Assembly: GCF_056746865.1 (NCBI RefSeq)
Contig: NZ_CM163382.1
Length of the DNA: 64,000 nucleotides
Strand: one strand, 5' to 3'
Shown here: in pieces, positions 7,199 through 25,279 of the stretch
How the letters are laid out: each line of letters opens with the position of its first letter
Numbering within the stretch: position 1 is the stretch's first letter
Program-made: the position numbers and the translations under genes
The notes under the pieces: generated by a model
Seen by the model: only the letters and a program-made list of their open reading frames with translations
Told to the model about the DNA's origin: nothing
Database searches by the model: none

Positions 7199-7313
7199 TG
7201 ATGCCCTCACCCCGACCCTCTCCCACAGGGAGAGGGAGAAAACCAGCGCTGATTTTAACACCGTGCTCGATCGGTTCCCTCGCCCCTTTGGGGAGAGGGG
7301 TAGGGGGAGGGGA
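7199..7313. repeat. G/C-rich nested-palindrome repeat element, copy 1
   Basis: CCCTCACCCCGACCCTCTCCCACAGGGAGAGGG ... CCCCTTTGGGGAGAGGGGTAGGGGGAGGGG, with the same architecture and flanks (GTGCGnnCTGATG) as the copy at 14561..14685. Confidence 0.7.
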
Positions 7314-7332
7314 AAAGCGCGCACAGAGCGAC

Positions 7333-8301: not shown

Positions 8302-8388
8302 TAAGCGTGCCGGGAATTTTTATAATCAAAAACAAAGGATTGTGAATCAGGCGGAAAATCCGTTTCCGCTATGGGGAAGGTGTTCGCG

Positions 8389-9108: not shown

Positions 9109-9147
9109 CGCAACCTCGTCTCGGTATTTAGGTGGGTTACTCCAGTA

Positions 9148-9174
9148 AAGCGGTTAACAGGCGGCAAAACTTTA
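9148..9174 (-). promoter_or_regulatory. Candidate sigma-28-type promoter upstream of lfgM
   Basis: The minus strand reads TAAAGTTT-N11-AACCGCTT. The -35 half matches the sigma-28 consensus TAAAGTTT; the -10 half is a weak match to GCCGATAA. Confidence 0.3.
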
Positions 9175-9188: not shown

Positions 9189-9926
9189 TTACTCCGCGCT
9201 TACCGTCGTCACCACGCCGCTTTCCGCCACCATCGCGCTGATGACCCGCTGGCTGCTGGCGTTACGCACTTTCACCATCTCGCCTTTGCGACCATTTTTC
9301 AGCGCCACGCCGGGCATCGAGGCGGTGATCCCCGCGCTCTGGTAAACAATCATCACCGGCTGATCGCGTTCGACCAGCACTGGCGAAACCAGCTCTTCTT
9401 TGGTGATGGGCCTGCCCGGTTGCAGCGCGTGTTTACTGCTGAAACCAATCGCGTCATCGGGATCCATCAACACATTGCGGCGCTGGGCGCTGACGTTGTA
9501 GGGCTTCAACTCCACATCATTTGCCGTGAGCGGCGTGTCGCGGGCAACCAGTGACTTCGCCATTACCACCGGCACCAGAACATCCGGGCGCACCGCCACG
9601 TTCATCTGCCAGCTTTGCGGGCAACTGACGGTGAAGTTCATCCGGTTGAGGGTGATTTCCGCAGGCGAAGTGAGCGTGACGCCGGGTGTAGTCGCACAGG
9701 GGGCGGCGGTCGCAATCTGCGAGGGAATATAGACCTTAAAGGTGTAGCGATAGTCATGCCAGCGCCGCTGTTGCGCCAGCGATTCAATTTCCTGGCTCGC
9801 GGCATTTAGCACCTGGGCGTTGACTTGTTCCCGCGCGCTGTGTTGCACGGGGTGGACGGCGGCGTAGCCCGGTAAGGCCAGCACCAGGAGGAAGAACAAC
9901 TTCCGCCTGCAAAATTGAAAACTCAT
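9189..9926 (-). CDS. lfgA: Flagellar P-ring assembly chaperone FlgA
   Basis: 245 aa with a signal peptide (LFFLLVLALPGYAA), divergent from flgB as in canonical flagellar loci. Confidence 0.8.
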   Translation of the reverse strand: MSFQFCRRKLFFLLVLALPGYAAVHPVQHSAREQVNAQVLNAASQEIESLAQQRRWHDYRYTFKVYIPSQIATAAPCATTPGVTLTSPAEITLNRMNFTVSCPQSWQMNVAVRPDVLVPVVMAKSLVARDTPLTANDVELKPYNVSAQRRNVLMDPDDAIGFSSKHALQPGRPITKEELVSPVLVERDQPVMIVYQSAGITASMPGVALKNGRKGEMVKVRNASSQRVISAMVAESGVVTTVSAE

Positions 9927-9955: not shown

Positions 9956-9970
9956 TGGCACGGCGATTGC
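9956..9970 (+). promoter_or_regulatory. Candidate sigma-54 (-24/-12) promoter for the lfgB-lfgL operon
   Basis: TGGCAC-ggcga-TTGC with exactly 10 nt between GG and GC, about 38 nt upstream of the lfgB ATG. Confidence 0.6.
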
Positions 9971-10007
9971 TTAGCGTATGCGGATTGAAGCAGGAGTGAC
10001 GCAGGAA

Positions 10008-10343
10008 ATGGGGATCAGTTTTCAACAGGCATTGGGAGTGCATCCGCAGGCAGTGAAGTTACGTCTTGAGAGGACCGAGCTACTGACTGCGAATCTGGCG
10101 AACGTCGATACGCCAAATTTCAAGGCTAAAGATATTGATTTTGCCAGGGAGATGCAACGGGCAAATAACGCGGCGGTGGATGTCCAGTACCGCGTACCGA
10201 TGCAGCCGTCAGAAGATGGCAACACCGTGGAACTGAACAGCGAACAGGCACGGTTTTCACAAAATAGTATGGATTATCAAAGCAGTCTGACCTTTCTGAA
10301 TCTGCAAATCAGCGGCATCAGAGAGGGCATTGAAGGGAAATAA
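10008..10343 (+). CDS. lfgB: Flagellar proximal rod protein FlgB
   Basis: Contains the rod-family N-terminal motif (LANVDTPNFKA). The ORF track starts at 9978; the internal ATG at 10008 gives the typical ~111-aa length. Confidence 0.85.
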   Translation: MGISFQQALGVHPQAVKLRLERTELLTANLANVDTPNFKAKDIDFAREMQRANNAAVDVQYRVPMQPSEDGNTVELNSEQARFSQNSMDYQSSLTFLNLQISGIREGIEGK

Positions 10344-10345
10344 GC

Positions 10346-10777
10346 ATGTCATTTACTGATATCTATCAGATTTCCGGCTCGGCGATGACGGCGCAAACCA
10401 TTCGTCTGAATACCGTTGCCAGTAACCTGGCGAATGCCAATGCACCTGCCGGCAGCGAGGCGCAGGCGTATAAAGCGCGCAGCCCGGTGTTTGCGGCGGT
10501 GTATCACCACAGCTTGCTGGCGGGAACGCATCGTCATGCCATTGATGGTGCCAGCGTGCAGGTGCAGGACGTGCTGCAAACCGGCGGGGCGGTGAAACGC
10601 TATGAACCGCATTCGCCGCTGGCGGATGCTAACGGGGATGTCTGGTATCCCGACGTCAACGTGGTGGAACAGATGGCGGACATGATGTCGGCCTCGCGCG
10701 ATTTTGAAACCAACGTCGATGTGCTCAACAACGTGAAAAGTATGCAGCAAAGCCTGCTGAAACTGGGAGAAGCCTGA
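10346..10777 (+). CDS. lfgC: Flagellar proximal rod protein FlgC
   Basis: 143 aa with the SNLANANAP rod motif. The frame is intact. Confidence 0.85.
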   Translation: MSFTDIYQISGSAMTAQTIRLNTVASNLANANAPAGSEAQAYKARSPVFAAVYHHSLLAGTHRHAIDGASVQVQDVLQTGGAVKRYEPHSPLADANGDVWYPDVNVVEQMADMMSASRDFETNVDVLNNVKSMQQSLLKLGEA

Positions 10778-11490
10778 TGAATACCCTGGCGCTGAATGCG
10801 CAATCGCCGCAGCCGACCGCCACGGCGGAAAGCAACAACGTGGCAGCCAGCGACACGACAAGCAGCAGCGATAGCTCGCCCGTCGATACCTTCCTGACGC
10901 TGTTTGTCGCTGAGATCCAAAACCAGGACCCGACCGACCCGACTGACGCCACCGAATATATCGACCAGCTTTCTTCGATGGCGCAGGTGGCGATGATGGA
11001 AGAGATGAGCGTGCAGGCCAACACCAACGCGGTGCTGATGAGCAACATTCAGGTGATGGCGCTCGGCAACCTGGTGGGTGACGACATTATGGTGCAGACC
11101 ACCGCCTTGCAGGTGAGCGACCAGACCATTAATGGTCGCGCCACGCTTGACGACGCCTGTACCACCGCCGATCTCCACTTTACCGATGCCGCAGGCGATG
11201 ACTACACCGTCTCGCTGATCCCGCAGGGCAGTTCGTCCGTCGGGCCAGGCCAGGTCGATTTCTCGATTAATCCGGCGGATTACGGTATCCCGCCCGGTGA
11301 TTACGACGTCTCGGTGGTGACCAACACCGGGGAAGAAGAGGTGCCGATTGAAGTTTCCGGCGAAGTGGAAGATGTACGCATCCCGCTCGACGGCGGCTCT
11401 CCGGTGCTCAATGTTGCAGGCGTGGGCGAAGTGCCGTTCACCATGATTAGCCAGTTTGGCGTACCCGATGCCGACAGTGATGTGGCGTGA
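10777..11490 (+). CDS. lfgD: Flagellar hook capping/scaffold protein FlgD
   Basis: 237 aa, in the flgD position. Confidence 0.8.
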   Translation: MNTLALNAQSPQPTATAESNNVAASDTTSSSDSSPVDTFLTLFVAEIQNQDPTDPTDATEYIDQLSSMAQVAMMEEMSVQANTNAVLMSNIQVMALGNLVGDDIMVQTTALQVSDQTINGRATLDDACTTADLHFTDAAGDDYTVSLIPQGSSSVGPGQVDFSINPADYGIPPGDYDVSVVTNTGEEEVPIEVSGEVEDVRIPLDGGSPVLNVAGVGEVPFTMISQFGVPDADSDVA

Positions 11491-11504
11491 TGTCCGGTGC
11501 CAAA

Positions 11505-11592
11505 TTGCCTGATGCGCTTCGCTTATCAGGCCTACATGAAACTGCATGGTTTTGTAGGCCGGATAAGGCGTTCACGCCGCATCCGGCAAAAC
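11505..11592. repeat. REP/BIME palindromic units
   Basis: GCCTGATGCG...CTTATCAGGCCTAC and GTAGGCCGGATAAGGCGTTCACGCCGCATCCGGCA units in the flgD-flgE intergenic region. Confidence 0.85.
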
Positions 11593-11633
11593 AACGGGCA
11601 CGCTGTCAAAATTTGAATTAACAGGACGAAACA

Positions 11634-12836
11634 ATGAGTTATGAAATTGCCGCAACGGGGCTGAATGCCGTTAACGAACAGCTCGACGGGATCAGTAACA
11701 ACATCGCCAACGCCGGAACGGTAGGCTATAAGTCGATGACCACCCAGTTTTCAGCCATGTATGCCGGAAGTCAGGCGATGGGCGTCAGCGTGGCAGGCAC
11801 CGCGCAAAGCATTTCGCGCGGCGGTTCGCTGGTCTCCACCGGTAACGCGCTGGATCTGGCGATTAACAACGATGGCTTTTTTGTGACCTGCGACAGCGCG
11901 GGCAACATTTCTTATACCCGCGCCGGATCGTTTGAAACCGACAAAAACGGCTATATTGTCAACGCCTCAGGCGCTTATTTGCAGGGTTATCCGGTCGATG
12001 ACACTGGCACCCTGCAAACCGGTACGGTCACCGATATCCAGATCAAAACCGGCAATATCCCGGCGCAGGCCAGCAGCAGCCTGACCTTTACCGCTAACTT
12101 CGATGCCAGCGACGACGCTATCGACCGCACCACCGTACCATTCGACCCGACCAACAGCAGCTCGTACACCGACAGCTACACCACCACGGTGTATGACTCA
12201 TTGGGTAACGAACATTCGGTATGCCAGTACTTCACCAAAACCAGCGACAACACCTGGGAAGTGCAGTACACCTTCGACGGCCAGCAGCAGACCGGCGTTC
12301 CGGCGACGACATTAACCTTCGACCCGAATACCGGGAAGCTGACCTCGCTAACTACGCCGCAAACCATTGAGTTTCAGACCGACGCCGCCGCGCCCATCGA
12401 CTTAACCGTCGATTACTCCACCTGTACGCAATACGGCTCTGACTTCTCGGTCACCACCAACTCTGCCAACGGCTACGCTTCCGCGACTCAGAACGGTGTG
12501 CAGGTTGATGACGATGGCAAAGTTTACGCCACCTACAGCAACGGCGAGCGCATGTTGCAGGGCCAGGTGGTGCTGGCGACTTTCCCGAATGAAAACGGCC
12601 TGGAGGCAGTGAGCGGCACCGCGTGGGTACAAACCGGGGAATCCGGCACCCCGCTGATTGGCGTTCCAGGCTCCGGTACCTGCGGTACGCTCACGTCCGG
12701 CGTGCTCGAAAGCTCTAACGTCGATATAACCAGCGAGTTAGTCAACCTGATGACCGCCCAGCGTAACTATCAGGCCAACACCAAAGTTATCGCCACCAGC
12801 ACGCAGCTCGATGACGCGCTGTTCCAGGCGATGTAA
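11634..12836 (+). CDS. lfgE: Flagellar hook protein FlgE
   Basis: 400 aa with conserved rod/hook N-terminus (ISNNIANAGTVGYK) and C-terminus (TAQRNYQANTKVI). Confidence 0.9.
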   Translation: MSYEIAATGLNAVNEQLDGISNNIANAGTVGYKSMTTQFSAMYAGSQAMGVSVAGTAQSISRGGSLVSTGNALDLAINNDGFFVTCDSAGNISYTRAGSFETDKNGYIVNASGAYLQGYPVDDTGTLQTGTVTDIQIKTGNIPAQASSSLTFTANFDASDDAIDRTTVPFDPTNSSSYTDSYTTTVYDSLGNEHSVCQYFTKTSDNTWEVQYTFDGQQQTGVPATTLTFDPNTGKLTSLTTPQTIEFQTDAAAPIDLTVDYSTCTQYGSDFSVTTNSANGYASATQNGVQVDDDGKVYATYSNGERMLQGQVVLATFPNENGLEAVSGTAWVQTGESGTPLIGVPGSGTCGTLTSGVLESSNVDITSELVNLMTAQRNYQANTKVIATSTQLDDALFQAM

Positions 12837-13573
12837 TGGACCGTTTGATTTATACCGCCCTGAGCGGTGCTTCTCAGACCCTGTACGAGCAGCAGATCAG
12901 CGCCAACAACCTGGCGAACGTCAACACCAACGGTTTTCGCGCCGATATGGCAATGGCAACCAACGACAAGGTGAAAGGCGGCGGCTTCGACACGCGCTAT
13001 ATGGCGCAGGAAGGGGCCAGCGGCGTGAACGACAGCACAGGTGTTGCGGAGAAAACCGAACGCCCGCTGGACGTGGCGATTCAGGGCGCGGGTTACATTG
13101 CGGTGCAGGATAAAAACGGCAACGAAGTCTATACCCGCAACGGCAACATTCAGCAGGATGACCAGGGGCAACTGACCATCGACGGCAATCTGGTGCTGGG
13201 GGATAACGGCCCGATCATTCTGCCGCCGAACGCCATTGCTTCGTTTGGCAGCGACGGCACGCTGTCGGTGACGCCCGATGACGGCGACGTGACTGCAACC
13301 ATGGATATCGACCGCCTGAAGCTGGTGGATATTCCTGTCGCTAACCTGGCGAAAAATCCTGAAGGGATGCTGATAACTGCCGACGGCGTTCCGGCCCAGC
13401 GCGATGAAAATATCAAAGTCAGTGGCGGTTTTCTCGAAGGCAGCAACGTCTCGGCGGTGAGCGAGATGATGTCGTCCATCGCCATGAACCGCCAGTTTGA
13501 AGCGCAGATCAAGATGATGAAAACCGCCGAAGATATCAGCGACGCGGGCAACCGCTTATTGCGCGGCTCGTAA
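12836..13573 (+). CDS. lfgF: Flagellar proximal rod protein FlgF
   Basis: 245 aa with N-terminal ANNLANVNTNGFR. Confidence 0.85.
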   Translation: MDRLIYTALSGASQTLYEQQISANNLANVNTNGFRADMAMATNDKVKGGGFDTRYMAQEGASGVNDSTGVAEKTERPLDVAIQGAGYIAVQDKNGNEVYTRNGNIQQDDQGQLTIDGNLVLGDNGPIILPPNAIASFGSDGTLSVTPDDGDVTATMDIDRLKLVDIPVANLAKNPEGMLITADGVPAQRDENIKVSGGFLEGSNVSAVSEMMSSIAMNRQFEAQIKMMKTAEDISDAGNRLLRGS

Positions 13574-13579
13574 CCGCAC

Positions 13580-13720
<141 letters not shown>

Positions 13721-13751
13721 GCGGCCGAAAAACAACACGGAATTTACCACC

Positions 13752-14537
13752 ATGAACGCAGCACTATGGATCAGCAAAACCGGCCTCTCGGCGCAGGATG
13801 CTGAAATGAGCGCGATTGCCAACAACATCGCCAACGTTAACACCACCGGCTTCAAGCGTGACCGGGTGATGTTTCAGGATCTGTTCTACCAGACCCAGGA
13901 AGCGCCGGGCGCGATGCTCGATCAGAACAACATCATGCCGACCGGGCTGCAATTCGGTAGCGGCGTGCGCATTGTCGGCACCCAGAAAACCTTCACCGAA
14001 GGCAACGTCGAAACCACCGACAACGCCATGAATGTCGCCATTATGGGGCAGGGGTTTTTGCAGGTGCAAAAGGCCAACGGCGATATCGCCTATACCCGCG
14101 ACGGCAACTTGCAGGTGAACGCCGACGGCGTACTGACCAACTCGCAGGGCTTGCCGTTGCAGCCGGAAATCGACGTTCCGGCGGGGGCGACCAACGTCGC
14201 GTTTGGCGAGGACGGCACGGTGACGGCGATCTTACCCGGCGACAGCGATGTGACCGAGTTAGGGCAACTGACACTGGTGAACTTCGCCAACCCAGCGGGG
14301 CTTTCTGCCGAGGGCGACAACCTGTATCTGGAAACCGCCGCCAGCGGTCAGCCGACCGAAGGTGTGCCGGGCGAAGATGGGCTTGGCACCTTGCAGGACA
14401 ACGCGCTCGAAGGCTCGAACGTGGATATCGTCAACGAAATGGTGGCGATGATTACGGTGCAACGCGCGTACGAGATGAACGCCAAAATGGTGTCGGCAGC
14501 GGACGATATGTTGCAGTACATCAGCCAGACGCTGTAA
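13752..14537 (+). CDS. lfgG: Flagellar distal rod protein FlgG
   Basis: The ATG at 13752 (MNAALWISKTGLSAQDA) gives ~261 aa. The upstream in-frame extension in the ORF track runs through the REP elements. Confidence 0.9.
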   Translation: MNAALWISKTGLSAQDAEMSAIANNIANVNTTGFKRDRVMFQDLFYQTQEAPGAMLDQNNIMPTGLQFGSGVRIVGTQKTFTEGNVETTDNAMNVAIMGQGFLQVQKANGDIAYTRDGNLQVNADGVLTNSQGLPLQPEIDVPAGATNVAFGEDGTVTAILPGDSDVTELGQLTLVNFANPAGLSAEGDNLYLETAASGQPTEGVPGEDGLGTLQDNALEGSNVDIVNEMVAMITVQRAYEMNAKMVSAADDMLQYISQTL

Positions 14538-14560
14538 GGGAGTGGGGGCAACGTGCGGTC

Positions 14561-14685
14561 TGATGCCCTCACCCCGGCCCTCTCCCACAGGGAGAGGGGG
14601 AAAAGCGGTGCACGATGTAACAACGCGCACAGGTCAGTCCCCTCTCCCTTGAGGGAGAGGGTTAGGGTGAGGGGGAACAAACAGC
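14561..14685. repeat. G/C-rich nested-palindrome repeat element, copy 2
   Basis: CCCTCACCCCGGCCCTCTCCCACAGGGAGAGGG ... CCCCTCTCCCTTGAGGGAGAGGGTTAGGGTGAGGG. Two inverted arms, each itself a hairpin, closely similar to the element at 7199..7313. Confidence 0.7.
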
Positions 14686-14743
14686 TCCGCACCCACTAAA
14701 CAACCGGCCACCCCCGTGGCCTGCAACACTAAACAGGCAGAAC

Positions 14744-15409
14744 GTGAAAAATTATCTCTGGCTGGTGGCGCTGCTTCCACTCCTTAGCGGGTGTGAATCA
14801 CAGGCCATTCTGGTCAAAAAAGACGACGCATACTTTGCGCCACCCAAAACCGAAGCGCCGCCTCCGGCAGACGGGCGTGCCGGGGGCGTGTTTGAAACTG
14901 GCTACAACTGGTCGCTAACCGCCGACCGGCGGGCTTACCGCGTGGGCGATATCCTGACGGTGATCCTCGAAGAATCTACCCAGTCGAGCAAACAGGCGAA
15001 AACCAACTTCGGCAAAAACAACACCGTCGATATCGGCGCGCCGACCATTTTTGGTCACACCAAAGATAAGCTTTCCGGCTCTATCGACGCCAACCGCGAC
15101 TTTGACGGCAGCGCCACTTCCCAGCAGCAGAACAGCCTGCGCGGGGAGATCACCGTTTCCGTCCATGCGGTGCAGCCCAACGGCATTCTGGAAATTCGCG
15201 GCGAAAAATGGCTCACCCTCAACCAGGGTGATGAGTACATCCGCTTAAGCGGCCTGGTGCGCGCCGACGATATCCAGAACGACAACTCGGTTTCCTCCCA
15301 GCGGATCGCCGACGCCCGCATTTCCTATGCCGGACGCGGCGCGTTAAGCGACGCCAACGCCGCAGGCTGGCTGACGCGGTTGTTTAACCATCCTCTGTTC
15401 CCGATTTAA
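14744..15409 (+). CDS. lfgH: Flagellar L-ring lipoprotein FlgH
   Basis: 221 aa with a lipoprotein signal and lipobox (LLPLLSGC). Confidence 0.9.
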
Positions 15410-16524
15410 TGCCGGAGAGTGCAATGCAAAACTGGATAAAGGCCGCAGCGATCGCTGTAAGCCTGGCGCTGCCCGGCGTGGCGCTGGCGCAATCGCTGGA
15501 GTCGCTGGTCAACGTACAGGGCGTGCGTGAAAACCAACTGGTCGGCTACAGCCTGGTGGTCGGCCTCGACGGCACGGGTGATAAAAACCAGGTCAAATTC
15601 ACCAACCAGACCATCACCAATATGCTGCGCCAGTTTGGCGTGCAGCTGCCGAATAAAATCGACCCGAAGGTGAAAAACGTCGCGGCGGTGGCGGTGAGCG
15701 CCACGCTGCCGCCGATGTACTCGCGCGGGCAGACCATTGACGTCACCGTTTCGTCGATTGGCGATGCCAAAAGTATTCGCGGCGGCACTTTATTGCTTAC
15801 GCAGCTGCACGGCGCAGATGGCGAAGTGTATGCCCTGGCGCAGGGAAGTGTGGTGGTGGGCGGGATGAATGCCACCGGGGCCAGCGGTTCCAGCGTGACG
15901 GTTAACACACCGACCGCCGGGTTAATTCCCAACGGCGCGACGGTGGAGCGTGAGATCCCCAGCGATTTTCAGATGGGCGACACCATCACCCTCAACCTGA
16001 AACGCCCGTCGTTTAAAGATGCCAACAATATTGCGGCGGCGATCAACGCTTCGTTTGGCGGCATCGCCACCGCGCAGAGTTCCACCAACGTTACCGTGCG
16101 CGCGCCCACCAGCCCCGGCGCGCGGGTGGCGTTTATGTCGCAACTGGATGATGTACAGGTGCAGGCAGAGAAAATCCGCGCCCGCGTGGTGTTTAACTCG
16201 CGCACTGGCACGGTGGTAATGGGCGATGGCGTTGCGCTGCACGCGGCGGCGGTGTCGCACGGCAGTTTGACCGTCTCGATTAACGAAACCAGCAACGTCA
16301 GCCAGCCGAATGCCTTTGCGGGCGGGCGCACGGCGGTAACGCCGCAGAGCAATATCGCGGTGAATCACGCCCGTCCGGGGGTGGTGAGTTTGCCGGAGTC
16401 GAGCAGCCTGAAAACGTTGGTTAATGCGTTGAACAGTTTAGGCGCGACGCCGGATGACATTATGTCGATTTTGCAGGCGCTGCATGAAGCGGGCGCGCTG
16501 GATGCCGACCTGGAGGTGATCTGA
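15409..16524 (+). CDS. lfgI: Flagellar P-ring protein FlgI
   Basis: 371 aa with a signal peptide ([17 protein letters not shown]). Confidence 0.9.
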
Positions 16525-16823
16525 TGAAAGTTAACGGCAGCGGCGGGATTGATGGCAGCGACGCATTAATGGGGCCGAAGGTTCAGGCCAATGATATCAA
16601 GCAGGCTGCGGAACAGTTTGAGGCGATTTTTTTACGCAACATGTTGAAAGAGATGCGTAAAACCAACGAGTTGTTCGATTCGAAAGATAACCCGTTTAAC
16701 AGCGATTCGGTGCGCATGATGCAGGGGTTTTATGACGATGAGTTGTGTAACACCCTGGCGCAGCAGCACGGGATTGGGATTGCGGCGATGATTGTGAAGC
16801 AGTTGTCGCCGAAGCATAAATGA
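16524..16823 (+). CDS. lfgJ: FlgJ-like rod-assembly protein, N-terminal rod-binding domain only
   Basis: 99 aa in the flgJ position between flgI and flgK. It is too short to carry the C-terminal muramidase domain of enterobacterial FlgJ. Confidence 0.65.
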   Translation: MKVNGSGGIDGSDALMGPKVQANDIKQAAEQFEAIFLRNMLKEMRKTNELFDSKDNPFNSDSVRMMQGFYDDELCNTLAQQHGIGIAAMIVKQLSPKHK

Positions 16824-16837
16824 GGCTCCGACGTTCG

Positions 16838-16925
16838 GTGCCTGATGCGACGCTGGCGCGTCTTATCAGGCCTACGAGTCGCCCGTATGTAGGCCGGATA
16901 AGGCGTTCACGCCGCATCCGGCACC
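16838..16925. repeat. REP/BIME palindromic units
   Basis: GCCTGATGCGACGC...CTTATCAGGCCTAC and GTAGGCCGGATAAGGCGTTCACGCCGCATCCGGCA in the flgJ-flgK intergenic region. Confidence 0.85.
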
Positions 16926-16998
16926 CGGTTTACGGAACTTAAGAATCCCCAACCTAACGCCGCTTTTAACCGGCACGATTTACCGGTAAGGATCCAAC

Positions 16999-18375
16999 AT
17001 GGACATGATTAACATCGGCTACAGCGGCGCATCAACCGCGCAGGTGGAGCTGAACGTCACGGCGCAAAACACCGCCAACACCATGACCACGGGCTACACC
17101 CGTCAGGTGGCGGAGATCAGCACCATCGGTGCCAGCGGCGGTTCGCCGAACAGCGCCGGTAACGGCGTGCAGGTCGATAGCATTCGCCGCGTCTCCAACC
17201 AGTATCAGGTGAATCAGGTGTGGTATGCCGCCAGCGATTACGGCTATTACAGCACCCAGCAAGGGTATCTCACGCAACTGGAAGCGGTACTGAGCGACGA
17301 TAACAGCAGCCTGAGCGGCGGCTTCGATAACTTTTTCGCCGCCCTTAACGAAGCGACCACCAGCCCCGATGATTCCGCCCTGCGCGAGCAGGTGATCAGC
17401 GAAGCCGGGGCGCTGTCGCTGCGTATCGACAACACGCTGGATTACATCGACTCGCAAAGCACGGAAATCATCAGCCAGCAGCAGGCGATGGTGTCGCAAA
17501 TTAATACGCTCACCAGCGGTATCGCCAGCTATAACCAGCAAATCGCTCAGGCCGAAGCCAACGGCGATAACGCCTCCGCGCTGTACGACGCCCGCGACCA
17601 GATGGTGGAAGAACTCAGCGGGATGATGGATGTGCAGGTCAATATCGACGACCAGGGCAACTACAACGTTACCCTGAAAAACGGTCAACCGCTGGTGAGC
17701 GGGCAGCAAAGCTCGACCATCGCGCTGGAAACCAACGCCGACGGCACGCCGACCATGTCGCTGACCTTCGCCGGAACCACCTCGACGATGACCACCGACA
17801 CTGGAGGTTCATTAGGCGCACTGTTTGATTATCAAAACGACGTGCTGACGCCGCTGACCGACACCATCAACAGCATGGCGTCGCAGTTTGCCGATGCGGT
17901 CAACAATCAACTGGCGCAGGGCTACGATCTCAACGGCAACCCCGGCGAGCCGCTGTTTATTTATGACGCCAGCAACGCCGATGGCCCGCTGACCGTCAAC
18001 CCGGATATCACCGCCGATGAGCTGGCGTTTTCCAGTTCACCGGACGAAAGCGGTAACAGCGACAACTTACAGGCGCTGATCAATATCTCCACCGAACCGC
18101 TGGAGATAGCCAACCTCGGCAGCGTGACGGTCGGGCAGGCGTGCTCGTCAATCATCAGCAATATCGGCATTTACAGCCAGCAAAACCAGACGGAAGTCGA
18201 TGCCGCGTCCAATGTCTATTCCGCAGCGCAAAACCAGCAGAGCAGCGTCAGCGGCGTCAGCATGGACGAAGAGGCGGTTAACCTGATCACCTATCAACAA
18301 ATTTATGAAGCCAATCTGAAAGTCATTTCCGCCGGGGCCGAGATTTTCGATTCGGTGCTGGAAATGTGCAGCTAA
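16999..18375 (+). CDS. lfgK: Flagellar hook-associated protein 1 FlgK
   Basis: 458 aa with the N-terminal rod/hook-family motif and a conserved C-terminal helix. Confidence 0.85.
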   Translation: MDMINIGYSGASTAQVELNVTAQNTANTMTTGYTRQVAEISTIGASGGSPNSAGNGVQVDSIRRVSNQYQVNQVWYAASDYGYYSTQQGYLTQLEAVLSDDNSSLSGGFDNFFAALNEATTSPDDSALREQVISEAGALSLRIDNTLDYIDSQSTEIISQQQAMVSQINTLTSGIASYNQQIAQAEANGDNASALYDARDQMVEELSGMMDVQVNIDDQGNYNVTLKNGQPLVSGQQSSTIALETNADGTPTMSLTFAGTTSTMTTDTGGSLGALFDYQNDVLTPLTDTINSMASQFADAVNNQLAQGYDLNGNPGEPLFIYDASNADGPLTVNPDITADELAFSSSPDESGNSDNLQALINISTEPLEIANLGSVTVGQACSSIISNIGIYSQQNQTEVDAASNVYSAAQNQQSSVSGVSMDEEAVNLITYQQIYEANLKVISAGAEIFDSVLEMCS

Positions 18376-18389
18376 GCGGGAGCGCGAAA

Positions 18390-19319
18390 ATGCGAGTAAC
18401 CACCCAACAAACCTACGTCTCGATGACGCAAAGTTTTAATAATCTCTCCGGCGATCTGGCGCATGTGGTCGAGCAGATGGCAACCGGCAAGGAAATTTTG
18501 CAGCCGTCGGATGACCCGATCGCCGCCACGCGCATCACCCAGTTGAACCGCCAACAGTCGGCGATTGAGCAGTATCAGAGCAATATCGACTCCGCGTCGG
18601 CGGGGTTAAGTCAGCAGGAATCAATCCTTGATGGCGTCAACAACAGCCTGCTGGCGGTGCGCGACGACCTGCTGGAAGCGGCGAATGGCACCAATACCGC
18701 CGATTCGCTCGCAAGTCTCGGGCAGGATATTGAGTCGCTCACCGAATCAATGGTCGTGGCGCTGAACTATCAGGACGAAGACGGGCATTACGTGTTTGGC
18801 GGTACCATCAACGATCAGCCGCCGATTGTGGCGGTGGACGATGACGGCGATGGCGTGACCGACAGCTACAGCTATCAGGGCAACAGCGACCACCGCCAGA
18901 CCACGGTGTCGAACGGCGTGGAAGTGGATACCAACGTGGCGGCGAGCGATTTCTTCGGCAGCAATTTAGATGTGCTCAACACACTGAATACCCTGTCGCA
19001 GGAGTTGCAAGACCCAAACGTTGACCCGGCCGATCCGCAGGTGCAGAGCGATATTCAGAACGCCGTTGATGTGGTGGACACCGCCTCGGATAACCTCAAC
19101 GCCTCGATTGCGTCGCTCGGCGAGACGCAGAACACCATGTCGATGTTGAGCGATGCGCAGACCGATATCTCTACCTCTAATGATGAGCTGATTGGTTCAT
19201 TACAGGATCTCGATTACGGCCCGGCGTCGATCACCTTTACCGGACTGGAAGTAGCAATGGAAGCTACCCTCAAGACTTACTCGAAAGTGAGTGAGTTGAA
19301 TTTGTTCAGCGTTCTCTAA
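18390..19319 (+). CDS. lfgL: Flagellar hook-associated protein 3 FlgL
   Basis: The ATG at 18390 (MRVTTQQTY) follows the flgK stop and gives ~309 aa with a flagellin-like N-terminus. Confidence 0.8.
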   Translation: MRVTTQQTYVSMTQSFNNLSGDLAHVVEQMATGKEILQPSDDPIAATRITQLNRQQSAIEQYQSNIDSASAGLSQQESILDGVNNSLLAVRDDLLEAANGTNTADSLASLGQDIESLTESMVVALNYQDEDGHYVFGGTINDQPPIVAVDDDGDGVTDSYSYQGNSDHRQTTVSNGVEVDTNVAASDFFGSNLDVLNTLNTLSQELQDPNVDPADPQVQSDIQNAVDVVDTASDNLNASIASLGETQNTMSMLSDAQTDISTSNDELIGSLQDLDYGPASITFTGLEVAMEATLKTYSKVSELNLFSVL

Positions 19320-19335
19320 CTCTTTCAGGAACAGT

Positions 19336-20313
19336 ATGCAGGTCGGACTTACATCTTCGTCACTCGCCACCGGCGGCGCGCATAGCGCTGCGGTATCGTC
19401 GTCAACCGTTGCGCCCACTCAGGCGGTGCGGCAAAAACTCCCGGCGACGGCGAGTGAATATCCGGCCTCGCCGCTGATTACCACTCGCCCGCAGCGTTAC
19501 AGCGTGCAGCTTAACGACCAGCTCACCACGTTGCAGCAGGCGGATCACTATCTCGGGCAACTGGAGCAGCAGTTGCTCGATTATCGTCACAGCCAGCGCA
19601 AAGGCGGGCAGGCGCAGAGTTCGGCGCTGATGCAGATGCTGGACAAACGCACCGCGCTTTCCGGCGGTGCGGTGGACCGCCAGTTGCAGCCAGTGTTGCA
19701 GGGGGAAGCGCGGGTGACTTTTCACTCGCCGGATCTGGCGAATCTGGTACACAATCCCACGCCGGGAACGCGCATGTTCAGCGTCTCTGACGGGCGGCAG
19801 ACTCAGCTTTCGGCGGTGATGCTGTCTGAGGATGACAGCGCTGGGCAGTACCAGACGCGGCTGACCAACGCCCTGCGCCGCGTGGGCGTGCAGATGCATC
19901 AAAACGCCGATGGTATAAGTTTCTCCACCACTGAAAAACAGTGGCCCAACATTGAAAGCACCCTAAGCGTGCGCACCGATGGTGATAAATCAGCGTTTAT
20001 GCCACTAAAAACCTTTGCCGAACCGTCGCAGGCGGACCGCTTAGTGCAAAGCCTGCAACAGGGCGGAGCGGGGATTTCTCAGACGTTAGAAAGCATTAAT
20101 CAGCAGCGTGTGCAGATGGCGGTACAGCAGGAAAAGGCGCGGCAGTTGATCGACGGCATGTCGCGCTTCCCGCAAACGGAAAGCGCCGTGCAGGCGTCGG
20201 AAAATCTCGGCGGCGTGCTGGATAGCGCCAATCATAACTATCAGGTTTTATTGCAGGCGGTGAACGGTCAGGCGCGAATTTCCAGCCAGACGGTGAGGAG
20301 TTTATTGGGTTAG
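19336..20313 (+). CDS. lafW: Flag-2-specific protein of unknown function (position of lafW)
   Basis: 325 aa with a Ser/Ala/Thr-rich N-terminus, located between flgL and the regulator/flagellin genes. Function is not evident from sequence. Confidence 0.5.
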   Translation: MQVGLTSSSLATGGAHSAAVSSSTVAPTQAVRQKLPATASEYPASPLITTRPQRYSVQLNDQLTTLQQADHYLGQLEQQLLDYRHSQRKGGQAQSSALMQMLDKRTALSGGAVDRQLQPVLQGEARVTFHSPDLANLVHNPTPGTRMFSVSDGRQTQLSAVMLSEDDSAGQYQTRLTNALRRVGVQMHQNADGISFSTTEKQWPNIESTLSVRTDGDKSAFMPLKTFAEPSQADRLVQSLQQGGAGISQTLESINQQRVQMAVQQEKARQLIDGMSRFPQTESAVQASENLGGVLDSANHNYQVLLQAVNGQARISSQTVRSLLG

Positions 20314-20334
20314 GGTTATTGTCATTGTTGCTTT

Positions 20335-20378
20335 TATAGCTATTAAGCTATAGTTTATCTATAGCATAAAAGCTATGA
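20335..20378. promoter_or_regulatory. Two inverted repeats (TATAGC...GCTATA) upstream of the toxin gene; candidate toxin-antitoxin operator
   Basis: TATAGCTATTAAGCTATA and CTATAGCATAAAAGCTATG lie immediately upstream of a GAGGGA ribosome-binding site and the ATG at 20386. Confidence 0.5.
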
Positions 20379-20385
20379 GGGACCG

Positions 20386-20730
20386 ATGATGTGGGACGTC
20401 GAGACAACGGAGACTTTCGACAACTGGTTTGATGCCCAGACTGTTGCGCTGAAAGAAGATTTACTTGCTGCAATGCTGATTCTTGCTGAGTATGGCCCAC
20501 AGTTGGGCAGACCCTTTGCGGATACGGTTAATGATTCACAGTTTTCAAATATGAAAGAATTACGCGTCCAACATCAGGGAAACCCGGTACGTGCTTTTTT
20601 TGCTTTCGATCCTGCGCGCCGTGGCATTGTATTATGTGCGGGTGATAAAACGGGGTTAAATGAGAAAAAGTTTTATCGCGATATGATCAAGCTCGCTGAT
20701 TCTGAATACCGTAAGCATCTGAAAAAGTAA
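20386..20730 (+). CDS. Type II toxin, RelE/ParE superfamily (HigB-like 'addiction module killer' family)
   Basis: 114 aa with a C-terminal GIVLCAGDK...KKFYRDMIKLAD region reminiscent of HigB-like killer proteins. It lies 9 nt upstream of a small HTH gene, and the toxin-first order is typical of higBA. Confidence 0.7.
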   Translation: MMWDVETTETFDNWFDAQTVALKEDLLAAMLILAEYGPQLGRPFADTVNDSQFSNMKELRVQHQGNPVRAFFAFDPARRGIVLCAGDKTGLNEKKFYRDMIKLADSEYRKHLKK

Positions 20731-20739
20731 GGAACGATA

Positions 20740-21039
20740 ATGGCTACTCTAAAAGAACTGATGGCAAAGCAAAGCCCTGAAAGCCAGGTGCGTATTGCGG
20801 CAAAAGTTGAGGAAATGCGCCAGACCATCGCCTTGCATCAGCTGAGAGAAGAACTCAATATTTCGCAAACGGAAATGGCGGCAGCGATGGGCATTAAGCA
20901 ACCGACTCTTGCAAAAATGGAGCAGGCAGATAACGATCCTCGGTTGTCTACGCTAAAACGCTATGTTGCGGCTTTAGGTGGGGAATTGAGTATCGACGTT
21001 AAACTGCCGAATGGTAAGAGAATTGCATTTCAGATTTAA
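20740..21039 (+). CDS. Type II antitoxin, XRE/HigA-family helix-turn-helix protein
   Basis: 99 aa with an HTH motif (ISQTEMAAAMGIKQPTLAKME), tightly coupled to the upstream toxin gene. Confidence 0.75.
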   Translation: MATLKELMAKQSPESQVRIAAKVEEMRQTIALHQLREELNISQTEMAAAMGIKQPTLAKMEQADNDPRLSTLKRYVAALGGELSIDVKLPNGKRIAFQI

Positions 21040-21096
21040 TTTTGGGGTGCATTTTATGAACCGGATTAGATAAAACGGTATCTAATCCGGTAAACA

Positions 21097-21990
21097 TCAG
21101 CATTTCTGCACAGTATTTAACAACTTCTCTAAATTCTGATACATCGCGCTATTAATATCGCTATTCTGCCAGCTATCCACATTAAAAGTTAATTGCCAGC
21201 TACCGTTGCACTGGTTGCGCAGAACAATATCACTCTCCAGTCGGTTACGAACATATTTATAATAGGTTGTCATTGTCATATTATGCGCTGACAATAAATT
21301 ATCGAGTTTGTCTTTTCCTGGTGCGAGGGTTTGTGACAGTAACGGTACGGAATTATTTTCCTTTCCAGAACTAAGATGAAATATTTTTATTCTTGGACTG
21401 TTAATTGACTCTTTTACCAGTTGCGGGGCGTCAGGTGTACTTTTCAAGTGTGAATACCCCACGGTTGAGCCAACCAATATAACAGCTGCGGCCAACGCTA
21501 ACCCCATCAGTCCTTTATGTTTTTTTCTAACAGGCACATACGGTGTTGTCGAAGATATCTCTTCTGGGGCTGTATCCTGTATCTGGTCGGTAATAATCAG
21601 CGCTTCTGCAGGCGATGACTCCGGCAAAGACACATACTCTTTATTGCATAAGTAACCTTTCTTCGGAATTGTTTTAATAATGTTCTGTTGTTTGCCATCA
21701 TCGTCGATAGCAACGCGCAACGCATGGATCGCCGTCGGCAGGCTGTTTCCGCCGACAATACGGTTCTTCCATACTTCGGCACATAAATAAGATCGCGATA
21801 AAACCACATCGGCATTTTTTGCTAATGTTTCCAGCAAAATAAAATGGTATTCGCCGAGACGACGTGTTTCACCCGTTTCGCAATGTATTAAGGCATTAAG
21901 CGACGGGTCCATCCGCCAGTTGTTGATAATAATACTCATAGTTGAGTTTACCTTAGCAAGGGATAAATGTTTCCTGATAGTGCTTTGCAT
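21097..21990 (-). CDS. lafZ: Membrane-anchored ToxR/CadC-like transcriptional regulator (position of lafZ)
   Basis: 297 aa with an N-terminal winged-helix OmpR/CadC-type DNA-binding region, a single TM helix (GLMGLALAAAVILVGSTVGY) and a periplasmic C-terminal domain. The gene is AT-rich relative to its flanks. Confidence 0.6.
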   Translation of the reverse strand: MQSTIRKHLSLAKVNSTMSIIINNWRMDPSLNALIHCETGETRRLGEYHFILLETLAKNADVVLSRSYLCAEVWKNRIVGGNSLPTAIHALRVAIDDDGKQQNIIKTIPKKGYLCNKEYVSLPESSPAEALIITDQIQDTAPEEISSTTPYVPVRKKHKGLMGLALAAAVILVGSTVGYSHLKSTPDAPQLVKESINSPRIKIFHLSSGKENNSVPLLSQTLAPGKDKLDNLLSAHNMTMTTYYKYVRNRLESDIVLRNQCNGSWQLTFNVDSWQNSDINSAMYQNLEKLLNTVQKC

Positions 21991-22424
21991 AAAGCACAGT
22001 CTTATACGTCCCTGAGAAGATGATTTTTCTGCGTGATAATTAATATTTTATGGTGATAAGATTATTCTTAATCACTATATAGCGTGGAAATGTAACGAAA
22101 TGACAGGACAGGTACAATAGCCAAATGTGTACTATTTGCAACGCAATGTAAATTTTGGCATCAGTACATTGAGAACAAAACGCGATAATTGATGACAATC
22201 TTAACTATATCAAGCGTTTGATAAAGACATATTTTGATACCTGGCCATGTGGCAGATATTGCTAATAATCTTTTTATCTGAATTTAAACTCTGCTTTTTT
22301 TAGCTAAAAGTGGCATCGGATAATACGTGGCGAAAAAATTTTAACGGCGATTTTAAGTTTGCTCCTGAGGTGTCGTTTTTACAGGGTATCGAAACGAAAA
22401 CGATTAATCCCAAGGAGCAGTATC

Positions 22425-23339
22425 ATGTTATCTATTAACACCAATAACGCCTCAATGGCCGCCGTTAATGCAATCAGCAAAAGCAGCTCTTCTCTGTCTA
22501 CATCTATGGAACGCCTGGCGACAGGTAACCGGATTAACTCTTCTGCCGATGACGCCGCAGGCAAACAAATTGCTAACCGTCTGACAGCACAGTCCAGCGG
22601 TATGGGTGTTGCGCTGAGCAACATCAATGATGCCACCGCGATGCTGCAAACCGCTGACAGCATGTTCGACGAAATGTCTGACGTGCTGGGTCGTATGAAA
22701 GACCTGTCAACTCAGGCAGCGAACGGCACCTACAGCGACGACGACCTGCAGGCGATGCAGGACGAATACGACGAACTGGGCCAGCAGATGTCTGACATGC
22801 TGCAAAACACCACTTACGGCGGCACCAACCTGTTCGGTGTTTCCGGTACCAGCAACACCGGTACTGACGGTCTGTTCCAGAGCGCGGTAACTTTCCAGGT
22901 GGGCGCGGAATCTTCCGACACCATGACCGTGAATATTTCAAGCCAGCTGAATACCCTGGTGACGGATCTTTCTGCAATCAGCAACTCCTTTAGTGCGGAT
23001 CAGGCTGACACCACTGGCACCGCAGGCGTTTCTGGCGGTACTGAGCTGACTGCGTCTGGCTCGGCTAACCAGATGATCACCAGCATCTCTACCGCGATGG
23101 ATGACGTGTCTCAGATCCAGTCCAAGCTGGGTGCCTCTATCAACCGTCTGAACGACACTGCCAACAACCTGACCAGTATGCAAGACAACACCGAAGTCGC
23201 TATCGGTAACATCATGGATACCGACTACGCGACGGAAGCGTCCAATATGACCAAACAGCAAGTGCTGATGCAGACTGGCATCACCATGCTGAAACAGTCC
23301 AACAGCATGTCCAGCATGGTTTCCAGCCTGCTGCAGTAA
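22425..23339 (+). CDS. lafA: Lateral flagellin
   Basis: The ATG at 22425 follows an AAGGAG ribosome-binding site. It has the flagellin N-terminus (MLSINTNNASMAAVNA...RLATGNRINSSADDAAG) and C-terminus (MTKQQVLMQTGITMLKQSNSM), about 304 aa. Confidence 0.9.
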   Translation: MLSINTNNASMAAVNAISKSSSSLSTSMERLATGNRINSSADDAAGKQIANRLTAQSSGMGVALSNINDATAMLQTADSMFDEMSDVLGRMKDLSTQAANGTYSDDDLQAMQDEYDELGQQMSDMLQNTTYGGTNLFGVSGTSNTGTDGLFQSAVTFQVGAESSDTMTVNISSQLNTLVTDLSAISNSFSADQADTTGTAGVSGGTELTASGSANQMITSISTAMDDVSQIQSKLGASINRLNDTANNLTSMQDNTEVAIGNIMDTDYATEASNMTKQQVLMQTGITMLKQSNSMSSMVSSLLQ

Positions 23340-23344
23340 TGGCG

Positions 23345-23380
23345 GACTTGCCGATGCGGCGTAAACGCCTTATCCGGCCA
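23345..23380. repeat. REP unit downstream of lafA
   Basis: GCCGATGCGGCGTAAACGCCTTATCCGGCC. Confidence 0.7.
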
Positions 23381-23385
23381 CGAAC

Positions 23386-23414
23386 AACACCGCCTGCGGG
23401 CGGTGTTGTGCTTT
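23386..23414 (+). terminator. Rho-independent terminator candidate after lafA
   Basis: Hairpin AACACCGCCTGCGGGCGGTGTT followed by a T-rich run (GTGCTTT). Confidence 0.6.
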
Positions 23415-23496
23415 CAGCGGCAGGCTTTTTTCCGCCAGAACGGAAACGTCATTTCCGCCTGTTTTTCAATCTATTGATTATTCACATAAAAAATAT

Positions 23497-23511
23497 TGGC
23501 ACGCCTTTTGC
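23497..23511 (+). promoter_or_regulatory. Candidate sigma-54 (-24/-12) promoter for lafB through lafU
   Basis: TGGCAC-gcctt-TTGC with canonical spacing, about 33 nt upstream of the lafB ATG. Confidence 0.6.
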
Positions 23512-23543
23512 CATTAACCTGACATCGTTACCCGGAGTCATCA

Positions 23544-24860
23544 ATGATTAACCCAAGAACCATTGCGCAAGAAATTGCTTATGCGGATGTCGCCACCCAG
23601 GCGGCAAATTTGCAGGAGAAGCAGACCGAGCTGGACGCTGAAAGCAGCGGCCTGGACTCGCTCAGCTCGGCGTTAAGCGATTTCCAGAGCGCCGTTGACG
23701 CGCTGAACAGCGATACCGACGGCCCGGTGACTTTTGCCGCCACCAGCAATAATGACTCGGCGACCGTTTCCGCTAACTCGCAGGCACAGGCGGGAAGCTA
23801 CTCGTTTTTCGTTGAGCAACTGGCGCAGGGGCAGCAAACCACGTTCAGTATGGGCGACGACGCCTTTTCCGCTACCGGTACTTTTGAACTGACGATGGGC
23901 GACAGCACCATGGATATCGATCTGTCGGCGGCAGATCAGAACGGTGACGGCGACGGTTTTATCGACGCCAGCGAACTGGTGAACGCGATTAACGACTCCG
24001 ATGATAATCCAGGCGTTTCAGCGGCGTTGGTGAAAACCGACGGCACCACCACCATTATGCTCACCTCCGATAGCACCGGGGCGCAGAGCGCGTTTTCGGT
24101 GAGCGTAACGGGGCATGATGCCAGCAACGATAGCACCAGCGCGCCCGTTGCCACGGTTGTTTCCTCAGCCCAGGACGCGATTATTCATCTCGGTAGCGCC
24201 ACGGGCCCGGCGATCACCAACAGCAGCAATACGTTTGATGATGTGATCCCCGGCGTCACCATGACTTTTACCGAAGTCAGCGATTCTGACAGCGACCTCA
24301 CCACTTTTAACATCAGCGAAGATTCCAGCTCCAGCCAGGAGAAAGTACAGACTTTTGTCGATGCCTATAACACCTTGATTGATACGGTTGATTCGCTAAC
24401 CACTCACGGTGATGACAGTACCAGCGCCGGGGTATTTGCAGGCGACGCCGGACTCAGTTCACTGGCGAACCAGCTCGATGACATCGCCCATGCCAGCTAC
24501 AACGGCGTGTCGATTGTTGACTATGGCATCACCCTCGATTCTCACGGCCACTTACAGATTGACTCCGACCAGTTCAACGACGAAATGGCGAAAAATCCTG
24601 ACGGTCTGACCTCTATTTTCGTTGGCGACAACAGCATGGTAGCGCAGATGGACGACCTGATTAACACCTACACGGACTCCAGCAACGGCATCATCACCCT
24701 GCGCCAGCAGAACATTGACGATCAGATGAGCAAAATTCAGGACGAAGGCGATCAGCTTACTGATACCTATAACGCCAACTACGACCGTTATCTGGAGGAG
24801 TACACCAACACGCTGGTCGAGGTGTACACCATGAAAGCCAGCATGGCGGCATTCGCGTAA
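23544..24860 (+). CDS. lafB: Flagellar filament cap protein FliD-like
   Basis: 438 aa in the fliD position after the flagellin gene, with a coiled-coil N-terminus. Confidence 0.75.
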   Translation: MINPRTIAQEIAYADVATQAANLQEKQTELDAESSGLDSLSSALSDFQSAVDALNSDTDGPVTFAATSNNDSATVSANSQAQAGSYSFFVEQLAQGQQTTFSMGDDAFSATGTFELTMGDSTMDIDLSAADQNGDGDGFIDASELVNAINDSDDNPGVSAALVKTDGTTTIMLTSDSTGAQSAFSVSVTGHDASNDSTSAPVATVVSSAQDAIIHLGSATGPAITNSSNTFDDVIPGVTMTFTEVSDSDSDLTTFNISEDSSSSQEKVQTFVDAYNTLIDTVDSLTTHGDDSTSAGVFAGDAGLSSLANQLDDIAHASYNGVSIVDYGITLDSHGHLQIDSDQFNDEMAKNPDGLTSIFVGDNSMVAQMDDLINTYTDSSNGIITLRQQNIDDQMSKIQDEGDQLTDTYNANYDRYLEEYTNTLVEVYTMKASMAAFA

Positions 24861-24882
24861 CTCAGAAGGAATATCCCTAAAG

Positions 24883-25275: not shown

Positions 25276-25279
25276 GACG

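Follow-up and report, generated by a model that had tools for sequence, protein, structure and literature searches.

The window analyzed here is a stretch of 64,000 nt of the RefSeq assembly GCF_056746865.1 (contig NZ_CM163382.1), which represents the Flag-2 (lateral-type) flagellar locus of Escherichia coli; the annotated record shows a complete cluster. Position 1 falls within a fliF-like gene. All Flag-2 genes of the window are intact, lfgC included, and so is lafK, which is located just outside of it. An earlier note on this DNA had proposed that two sigma-54 promoters head the rod/hook operon and the fliD-to-motB operon. We analyzed these two elements, the regions upstream of them and the regulatory circuit to which they may belong, both in the locus and among its relatives.

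For the promoter search the window was extended by 8 kb of upstream sequence to 72 kb (about 144,000 positions). A position in this extended locus (L001) corresponds to the window position plus 8001. The sigma-54 weight matrix used for scanning was approximated from the published consensus TGGCACG-N4-TTGCW and has a maximum of 19.7 bits. The relatives were obtained by one scan of a species-level genome collection with an LfgK alignment as query, which yielded 56 loci with 10-kb flanks; the genes within these loci were placed by tblastn. The loci belong to Escherichia, Citrobacter, Phytobacter, Pseudocitrobacter, Pseudescherichia, Leminorella, Enterobacter, Dryocola, Mangrovibacter, Buttiauxella, Cedecea, Serratia, Budvicia, Vibrio, Shewanella, Burkholderia, Caballeronia and others. 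Sigma-54 site counts across loci refer to 53 related loci (1.07 Mb) and a cutoff of at least 13 bits.

Both elements of the earlier note, described there as TGGCAC-N5-TTGC, were found exactly where it had placed them: TGGCACGGCGATTGC at 9956-9970 upstream of lfgB and TGGCACGCCTTTTGC at 23497-23511 upstream of lafB, both on the plus strand, both intergenic and in sense orientation to the gene behind them. The spacing also agreed with the claim, as GG and GC are 10 bp apart at both sites, which is canonical for -24/-12 elements. In its full length the promoter PlfgB, TGGCACGgcgaTTGCT, extends over 9956..9971 (+) with GG at 9957-9958, GC at 9969-9970 and a predicted start site at about 9982. PlafB, TGGCACGccttTTGCC, covers 23497..23512 (+) with GG at 23498-23499, GC at 23510-23511 and a predicted start at about 23523. 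The matrix scan ranked the lfgB site first (18.8 bits) and the lafB site second (17.4 bits), and both match the extended consensus behind this approximate matrix. The total of two promoters did not hold, since a third intergenic site, CGGCACgcttaTTGCA at 8297..8312 on the minus strand, had been overlooked; it reached 15.5 bits (rank 3) and has a predicted start at about 8286. E. coli possesses rpoN, and judged by rank, spacing and position the two reported sites are likely to be genuine sigma-54 (RpoN) promoters of the -24/-12 type.

The pattern TGGCAC-N5-TTGC has three exact matches in the window compared with 0.25 expected; in 100 shuffles that preserved dinucleotides this number was never reached. 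One of these matches (36811-36825, +) lies in sense orientation inside gpt (36530-36988). We rejected it as a further promoter: it is intragenic, scores only 13.6 bits (rank 6), has no upstream palindrome of the kind described below and does not appear in the sigma-54 chromatin immunoprecipitation sequencing (ChIP-seq) site tables of Bonocora 2015 available as text. The match is probably inert and illustrates that the 15-mer by itself does not suffice. A separate, low-scoring sequence of the same type (11.2 bits) is TTGGTAAAACAGTTGCAT at 38347-38364 (+), upstream of crl (38382-38783). It is identical to an entry in a supplementary table of PMC4591121, which is given there for E. coli K-12 as a sigma-54 ChIP-seq site of low stringency in front of crl.

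A side-by-side reading of the upstream regions revealed that each of the three top-ranked sigma-54 sites is preceded by an inverted repeat, GGAAR-N5-YTTCC, which is followed by GCCTG. At PlfgB this palindrome, GGAAGaacaaCTTCC plus GCCTG, is located at 9890..9909 (repeat 9890-9904) within the coding sequence of lfgA and is centred at about -85. At PlafB it reads GGAAAcgtcaTTTCC plus GCCTG and occupies 23442..23461 (repeat 23442-23456; centre about -74), and at the third promoter, read on the minus strand, it is GGAAAcggatTTTCC plus GCCTG at 8348..8367 (repeat 8353-8367; centre about -73). The inverted repeat occurs exactly three times in the 64 kb (0.29 expected), as does the 9-mer TTCCGCCTG (0.74 expected). 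The repeat begins 66 bp before the first base of the -24 hexamer at PlfgB and 55 bp before it at both PlafB and the third promoter; measured from the 9-mer, which begins 11 bp into the repeat, the corresponding values are 55, 44 and 44 bp.

The same arrangement was found among the relatives. Sigma-54 sites that reach the cutoff precede lfgB in 44 loci, lafB in 32 and the third gene's orthologue in 17, and about 70 other matches are mostly intragenic and weaker. The best site upstream of lfgB scores 16-19.5 bits in every Enterobacterales locus in which the region was recovered, and the same applies to lafB. In Vibrio and Shewanella the lfgB-upstream site reaches 12-14 bits and has TTGT at -12, again with lafB behaving likewise, and in the Burkholderia and Caballeronia loci a sigma-54 site upstream of lfgB or lafB is absent. 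The palindrome follows the promoters: 74 of 110 exact repeats are located 40-80 bp upstream of the three promoter classes, and none was detected upstream of the roughly 70 other sigma-54-like matches. All 43 scored lfgB promoters have it at a distance of 66-68 bp and 26 of 28 lafB promoters at 54-57 bp, and at the third promoter the distance is either 55-56 or 64-66 bp, so that the spacing classes are 11-12 bp apart, which is about one helical turn. The core GGAA-N7-TTCC is invariant across loci and the five central bases vary freely. Within Escherichia as well as across genera, GGAA, TTCC, GG and TTGC are invariant while the neighbouring bases change.

Two further elements accompany the palindrome. 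At PlafB a distal element, GGCAGgctttTTTCC (23419..23433), shows conservation of its right half-site TTCC alone, about 22-23 bp upstream of the proximal TTCC; this distal half-site is conserved, about 22 bp beyond the repeat, at the lafB and third promoters alike. In addition, AATCAATAGATTG (23467..23479, minus strand) between the palindrome and the -24 element of PlafB fits the IHF consensus WATCAANNNNTTR. The corresponding block, YAA-N4-TTGAT, is the reverse complement of this consensus and is conserved in the lafB and third-promoter classes, which suggests that IHF may bind to the block at PlafB. For PlfgB we make no such claim, since the block conserved at that promoter coincides with the lfgA start codon (9926) and ribosome-binding site.

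The genes behind PlfgB, lfgBCDEFGHIJ (rod, hook, ring and rod-cap genes; 10008..16823, +), form a predicted sigma-54 transcription unit. The -12 C is 37 nt away from the annotated lfgB ATG (10008), and we prefer this annotation over a longer open reading frame from 9978, as the latter begins upstream of the predicted start site. For these genes the rod/hook operon of the earlier note can be retained, but not for lfgK, which has an internal late promoter of its own. The hook-associated genes lfgK-lfgL-lafW (16999..20313, +) are predicted to be transcribed from this late promoter, possibly also by read-through from PlfgB. Several gaps in this region, lfgD-E (11491-11633), lfgF-G (13574-13751), lfgG-H (14538-14743) and lfgJ-K (16824-16930), are filled with palindromes of the repetitive extragenic palindromic (REP) or bacterial interspersed mosaic element (BIME) type (GCCTGATGCGACGC..., GCCGGATAAGGCGT...), and the lfgG-H gap contains additionally a boxC-like repeat (CCCTCTCCC...GGGAGAGGG). 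These repeats might attenuate or stabilise the lfg operon mRNA; in Citrobacter the lfgF-G and lfgG-H gaps are much shorter. They are also the reason for about 30 matching places per genome in a strain comparison with the 15 kb around the motifs, a region which is 100% identical in strain 118UI and several other strains. The divergent lfgA starts at 9926 on the minus strand, and the -24 element of PlfgB is no more than 30 nt away. No promoter of lfgA was recognised with the sigma-54 matrix, the sigma-70-like search or the aligned upstream regions, and transcription of this gene must begin inside the sigma-54 promoter region or on its far side.

At the other end of the unit, lafW and lafZ are separated by an insertion (20386-21039, +) with a RelE/ParE-family toxin gene and a helix-turn-helix (HTH) antitoxin-like gene, and a long palindrome lies ahead of it at about 20330-20375. 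This insertion is reported for strain 042 and absent in strains W and Crooks, apparently also in EC958.

PlafB heads eight genes, lafBCDEFSTU (23544..29659, +), with intergenic gaps of at most 22 nt. Their products are, in order, fliD, fliS, lafD, fliK-like, fliL-like, the sigma-28 factor, motA-like and motB-like. The distance from the -12 C to the lafB ATG (23544) is 32 nt, and a Shine-Dalgarno sequence GGAG is located at 23534-23537. As the earlier note had anticipated, lafS (27141-27857, +; FliA/WhiG family, sixth gene of the unit) and the stator genes lafT (motA-like, 27870-28733, +) and lafU (motB-like, 28736-29659, +) belong to this closely packed, sigma-54-headed unit. No terminator-like site was found on the plus strand downstream of PlafB in a scan of 8000-27900, a range that ends before the lafT-lafU stretch (27900-29659). 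Upstream, lafA is followed by the hairpin AACAACACCGCC-tgcg-GGCGGTGTTGT (23383..23409, +), which has a strong stem and a poor T tract (GCTTTC) and is probably a terminator that parts lafA from the lafB block. Beyond lafU, the 70-nt gap to dinB contains CTGTATACTTTACCAG (29698-29713, +), a sequence we take to resemble the LexA (SOS) box of dinB. A terminator-like hairpin between lafU and dinB was not found, and read-through of the Flag-2 operon into dinB is conceivable.

The third promoter is located in front of a two-gene unit (4683..8262, -). The first gene (8262-7333) encodes a 309-aa protein with a distant likeness to the flagellin lysine-N-methylase FliB, which stays below the cutoff (E=2.8e-11, 43.5 bits compared with a cutoff of 85). 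The second gene (7154-4683) encodes an 823-aa glycosyltransferase of family 2 (GT2). The pair is probably a flagellin-modification operon, which the promoter would place in class II.

A sigma-54 promoter implies an enhancer-binding protein, and the earlier note had expected it to be encoded outside of the window. The gene lafK (L001 5678-6658), which ends about 1.3 kb before window position 1, provides such a protein. LafK consists of 326 aa with a Sigma54_activat domain (E=1.7e-64), an AAA lid, a C-terminal Fis-type HTH_8 domain, the Walker A motif GETGAGKE and the GAFTGA motif, and it has no N-terminal sensor domain. In the literature it is grouped with PspF and HrpRS as a type Ic activator without signal domain (PMC3162934). 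We searched the lfiM-lafK intergenic region (L001 5291-5677; window -2710 to -2324) for the class I promoter of lafK and lfiM and found neither a sigma-54 site nor the palindrome nor a sigma-70-like match. The region contains REP elements and AT-rich stretches, and an obvious Shine-Dalgarno sequence of lafK was not seen.

The upstream regions of lafA, lfgM and lfgK contain a different motif instead of a sigma-54 site. Their alignment across loci yielded TTAAG(T/A)(T/A)T-N12/13-GYCGYTTTA, and the shorter form TWAAG-N16/17-CGYTTT has four matches in the 72 kb compared with 0.2 expected. The match upstream of lfgK, TTAAG-N17-CGCTTT (16939..16966, +), is the internal late promoter mentioned above and recurs upstream of lfgK in 39 loci. 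TTAAG-N16-CGTTTT (22353..22379, +) is located 46 nt upstream of lafA, and TAAAG-N17-CGCTTT (9147..9174, -) upstream of the anti-sigma factor gene lfgM; each of these two was found in 18 loci. The fourth match (22177..22204, -) is weaker, is directed toward lafZ with a leader of 238 nt and occurs only in Escherichia and very close relatives. The enterobacterial sigma-28 consensus, searched as TAAAG-N13-15-GCCGATAA, has no match near the late genes or elsewhere in the locus. The new motif would be read by the sigma-28 factor of the locus and is a putative LafS promoter.

From the rank, position and conservation of the motifs, their co-occurrence with the palindrome, the packing of the operons and the domains of LafK we infer a three-tier circuit, in which all binding and all dependence on RpoN, LafK, IHF and LafS belong to the inference. 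RNA polymerase with sigma-54 would form closed complexes at PlfgB, PlafB and the third promoter (8312-8297). LafK, with AAA+ and HTH domains only, would bind as a dimer or higher oligomer to GGAAR-N5-YTTCC centred at about -74 or -85. Bending of the IHF type, at least at PlafB and the third promoter, would bring LafK into contact with the closed complex, and hydrolysis of ATP by LafK would convert it to the open complex. In this way lfgBCDEFGHIJ, lafBCDEFSTU and the flagellin-modification operon would be transcribed. LafS would appear after class II, because its gene lies in the PlafB unit, and would then read the TTAAG-N16/17-CGYTTT promoters at lafA, lfgMN and lfgKL-lafW, with LfgM as the anti-sigma factor of this tier. 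We are rather confident that the two reported elements represent the sigma-54 class II tier of the E. coli Flag-2 regulon. It seems probable, with somewhat less assurance, that the activating enhancer-binding protein uses the inverted repeat as its enhancer. That the protein bound to it is specifically LafK is a proposition which we hold in even balance. The same evenly weighed judgement applies to the general form of the proposal, in which GGAAR-N5-YTTCC (extended GCGGAA-N7-TTCCGC) would be the LafK box of lateral class II promoters from E. coli to Vibrio and Shewanella, placed at an unusually short, helically phased distance and assisted by IHF bending. A description of a LafK-binding sequence was not found in the literature searched, which did not extend to the primary papers on lateral flagella.

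Several observations weigh against this circuit or parts of it. The matrix has no curated set of sites behind it, PlafB has a C instead of A/T at -11, and a repeat centred at about -74 is unusually close to the promoter for an enhancer. In V. parahaemolyticus, for which RpoN sites are predicted at the lateral flgB2 (ATGGCACGTATCTTGTTTG) and at lafB (TAGGCACGTATCTTGCGAT), an electrophoretic mobility shift assay showed that RpoN alone shifted the flgB2 fragment and not the lafB fragment (PMC9817140). LafA was undetected in the sequence type 131 (ST131) strain EC958 at 28 and 37°C, and function or expression of Flag-2 has never been demonstrated in E. coli (PMC4637896, PMC3032704). Finally, Plesiomonas shigelloides (L063) has no lafK and nevertheless contains the repeat (9854-9868) before flgB(L), here 89 bp upstream of a weaker sigma-54 site, TGGCGTgttaaTTGC (9943-9958). 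The strong sigma-54 sites of this species at fliE(L)/fliM(L) (L063 2339 (+), 18.5 bits; 2150 (-), 15.4 bits) are without the repeat.

The Plesiomonas arrangement bears directly on the question of whether the palindrome could be something other than a LafK site, namely a site of another protein such as Fis, FlaK/FlrA or LafZ, or a hairpin or terminator belonging to the gene upstream. FlaK has been proposed as the substitute for LafK in P. shigelloides (PMC11242183), and since the repeat is kept in this species the binding protein may be, or be shared with, an activator of the FlaK/FlrA type. A second Flag-2 clade (LfgK 46-48% identical) also contains an additional exact repeat, which follows the sigma-28-type promoter of lfgM at a distance of about 20-30 nt and has no sigma-54 site in its vicinity (L028, about 2596-2656; equivalents in L029, L031, L034, L039, L040, L042 and L049). 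Moreover, the palindrome follows the end of lafA at PlafB and the end of lfgN at the third promoter, the terminator scan flags 23441-23457, and the length of the palindrome equals that of a Fis site (PMC10723142). On the other hand, 27 loci have the PlfgB repeat within the coding sequence of the divergent lfgA, the spacing is fixed relative to the -24 element and not relative to the upstream stop codon, and specific letters are conserved. The R/Y pair shows little covariation (61% Watson-Crick compared with 51% expected). We rejected an RNA hairpin or terminator for PlfgB because of the location within lfgA, and also on the weak covariation, and therefore read the repeat as a protein-binding site. 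LafZ is not detectable in Vibrio and Shewanella loci which still carry the palindrome, and a 15-bp pseudopalindrome is the type of sequence bound by the dimer of a Fis-type HTH protein such as FleQ (PMC10723142). Taken together, we regard an identity other than a LafK site as possible but unlikely.

The motifs could also be relics of a cryptic, decaying locus, promoters once but now unused in E. coli, and the hierarchy would then be historical. The missing LafA of EC958 would fit this explanation, as would the failure to find a recognisable promoter or Shine-Dalgarno sequence of lafK. Strain 042 contains a frameshift in lfgC, and strains W and Crooks are without motY and maf-5 (PMC4637896, PMC3032704). 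In E. coli RMDEC465 (L060) the -24 element of PlfgB is TGGCGC instead of TGGCAC, an in-frame TAA is present at codon 7 of lfgB (TTTCAATAA) and lfgB is unannotated; this weakened element and premature stop indicate that the locus decays in some lineages. In contrast, 1232 and 1279 of 5426 complete E. coli genomes retain the two promoter regions, mostly with 95-99% identity, and in the aligned examples the substitutions spare GG and TTGC of the promoters as well as GGAA and TTCC of the palindrome. The intact gene set of the window also speaks against general decay, and expression was assayed under few conditions. We therefore consider the relic explanation improbable.

Still less probable is that lafB to lafU are transcribed mainly by read-through from the sigma-28-type promoter of lafA, or from another promoter, with the sigma-54 element in a minor role: the poor T tract means that termination behind lafA may be partial, two Vibrio species also have a sigma-28-type motif before lafB and a weak sigma-70-like match overlaps 23519-23548, but exclusive dependence on sigma-28 would be circular because lafS is part of the same unit, the sigma-54 site and palindrome upstream of lafB are conserved with fixed spacing in 32 loci, the E. 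coli lafA-lafB interval has no sigma-28-type motif, and sigma-70-like matches occur close to chance (16 compared with 12.9 expected).

Roughly one in four complete E. coli genomes has Flag-2, among them genomes of ST131 and of other pathogenic lineages, and the present sequence evidence translates into a testable circuit of three sigma-54 promoters with a shared palindrome, LafK and a separate sigma-28-type late motif. The promoters themselves are what specialists would expect from the Vibrio model, and the surprise is modest. New are the third promoter, the candidate LafK enhancer with its fixed phasing and the LafS-type late motif. If the LafK box is true, Flag-2 would retain under selection a full three-tier circuit of three LafK/sigma-54 units, one of which serves flagellin modification, with LafS promoters below them; the system would be silent in the laboratory solely for want of LafK synthesis, and supplying the sensor-less LafK should awaken it. 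The palindrome is offered at the same time as a candidate LafK-binding sequence for the better-studied systems of Vibrio and Aeromonas.

Among the known activators, PspF (325 aa) resembles LafK in having AAA+ and HTH domains only and no sensor domain. The pspA promoter of E. coli is of the sigma-54 type with upstream sites and IHF in between. Compared with the psp upstream sites, the Flag-2 palindrome is far closer to its promoter. PspA restrains PspF, and we know of no negative regulator of LafK. For this reason LafK, as an activator of the always-on type, would have to be controlled at the level of its own synthesis.

Of the enhancers described so far, the FleQ box of P. aeruginosa (GTCAAT-N2-ATTGAC, 14 bp) comes closest to the Flag-2 palindrome. 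It is a single pseudopalindrome at a flagellar sigma-54 promoter which is bound by a Fis-type HTH dimer, with participation of IHF (PMC10723142). The palindrome of Flag-2 (15 bp) is unrelated to it in sequence and does not contain GTCAAT-N2-ATTGAC. LafK also differs from FleQ in that it has no receiver-like domain, and a FleN partner is not evident.

The late tier can be compared with the FliA class 3 promoters of E. coli and Salmonella, TAAAGTTT-N11-GCCGATAA. The -35 half of the Flag-2 late motif (TTAAGTTT) is nearly the same, whereas its -10 half, GYCGYTTTA, differs from GCCGATAA. The positions agree, as FliA promoters are also found upstream of flagellin, flgM and flgK. This includes the internal flgKL promoter of the primary flagellar system, which the internal late promoter of lfgKL-lafW parallels.

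The hierarchy with LafK/sigma-54 above sigma-28, to which the earlier note had referred for the lateral flagella of V. parahaemolyticus, is indeed the published model, and it applies to A. hydrophila as well (PMC4481668, PMC11242183, PMC5013049). LafK activates the class II lateral genes; these include the gene of the lateral sigma-28 factor, which then drives class III (PMC4481668, PMC11242183). In A. hydrophila a lafK mutation lowered the activity of a PflgB reporter from 970 to 20 Miller units (PMC5013049). In lateral region 1 of V. parahaemolyticus (L062) the sole exact repeat within 20 kb, GGAAGtttggTTTCC, is located 56 bp upstream of the published flgB2 RpoN site, with a perfect IHF consensus, TAAgtcaTTGAT, between the two, so that this class II promoter shares the architecture described here. 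For lateral region 2, a protein search with FliS(L) gave no V. parahaemolyticus entry, and a comparison of the published lafB site with metagenomes returned five matches, all in unrelated coding sequence. The class II lateral promoters of Vibrio and Aeromonas, flgB(L) and fliD(L)/lafB, are identical to those of Flag-2 in genes, order and -24/-12 position (PMC4481668, PMC5013049), and both groups have the sigma-28 gene within the fliD-to-motB unit together with a sensor-less activator of the LafK type. The sites of E. coli Flag-2, with TTGC, are nearer to the consensus than those of Vibrio flgB(L), with TTGT, and Flag-2 differs from the Vibrio and Aeromonas systems by a third promoter for the flagellin-modification operon.

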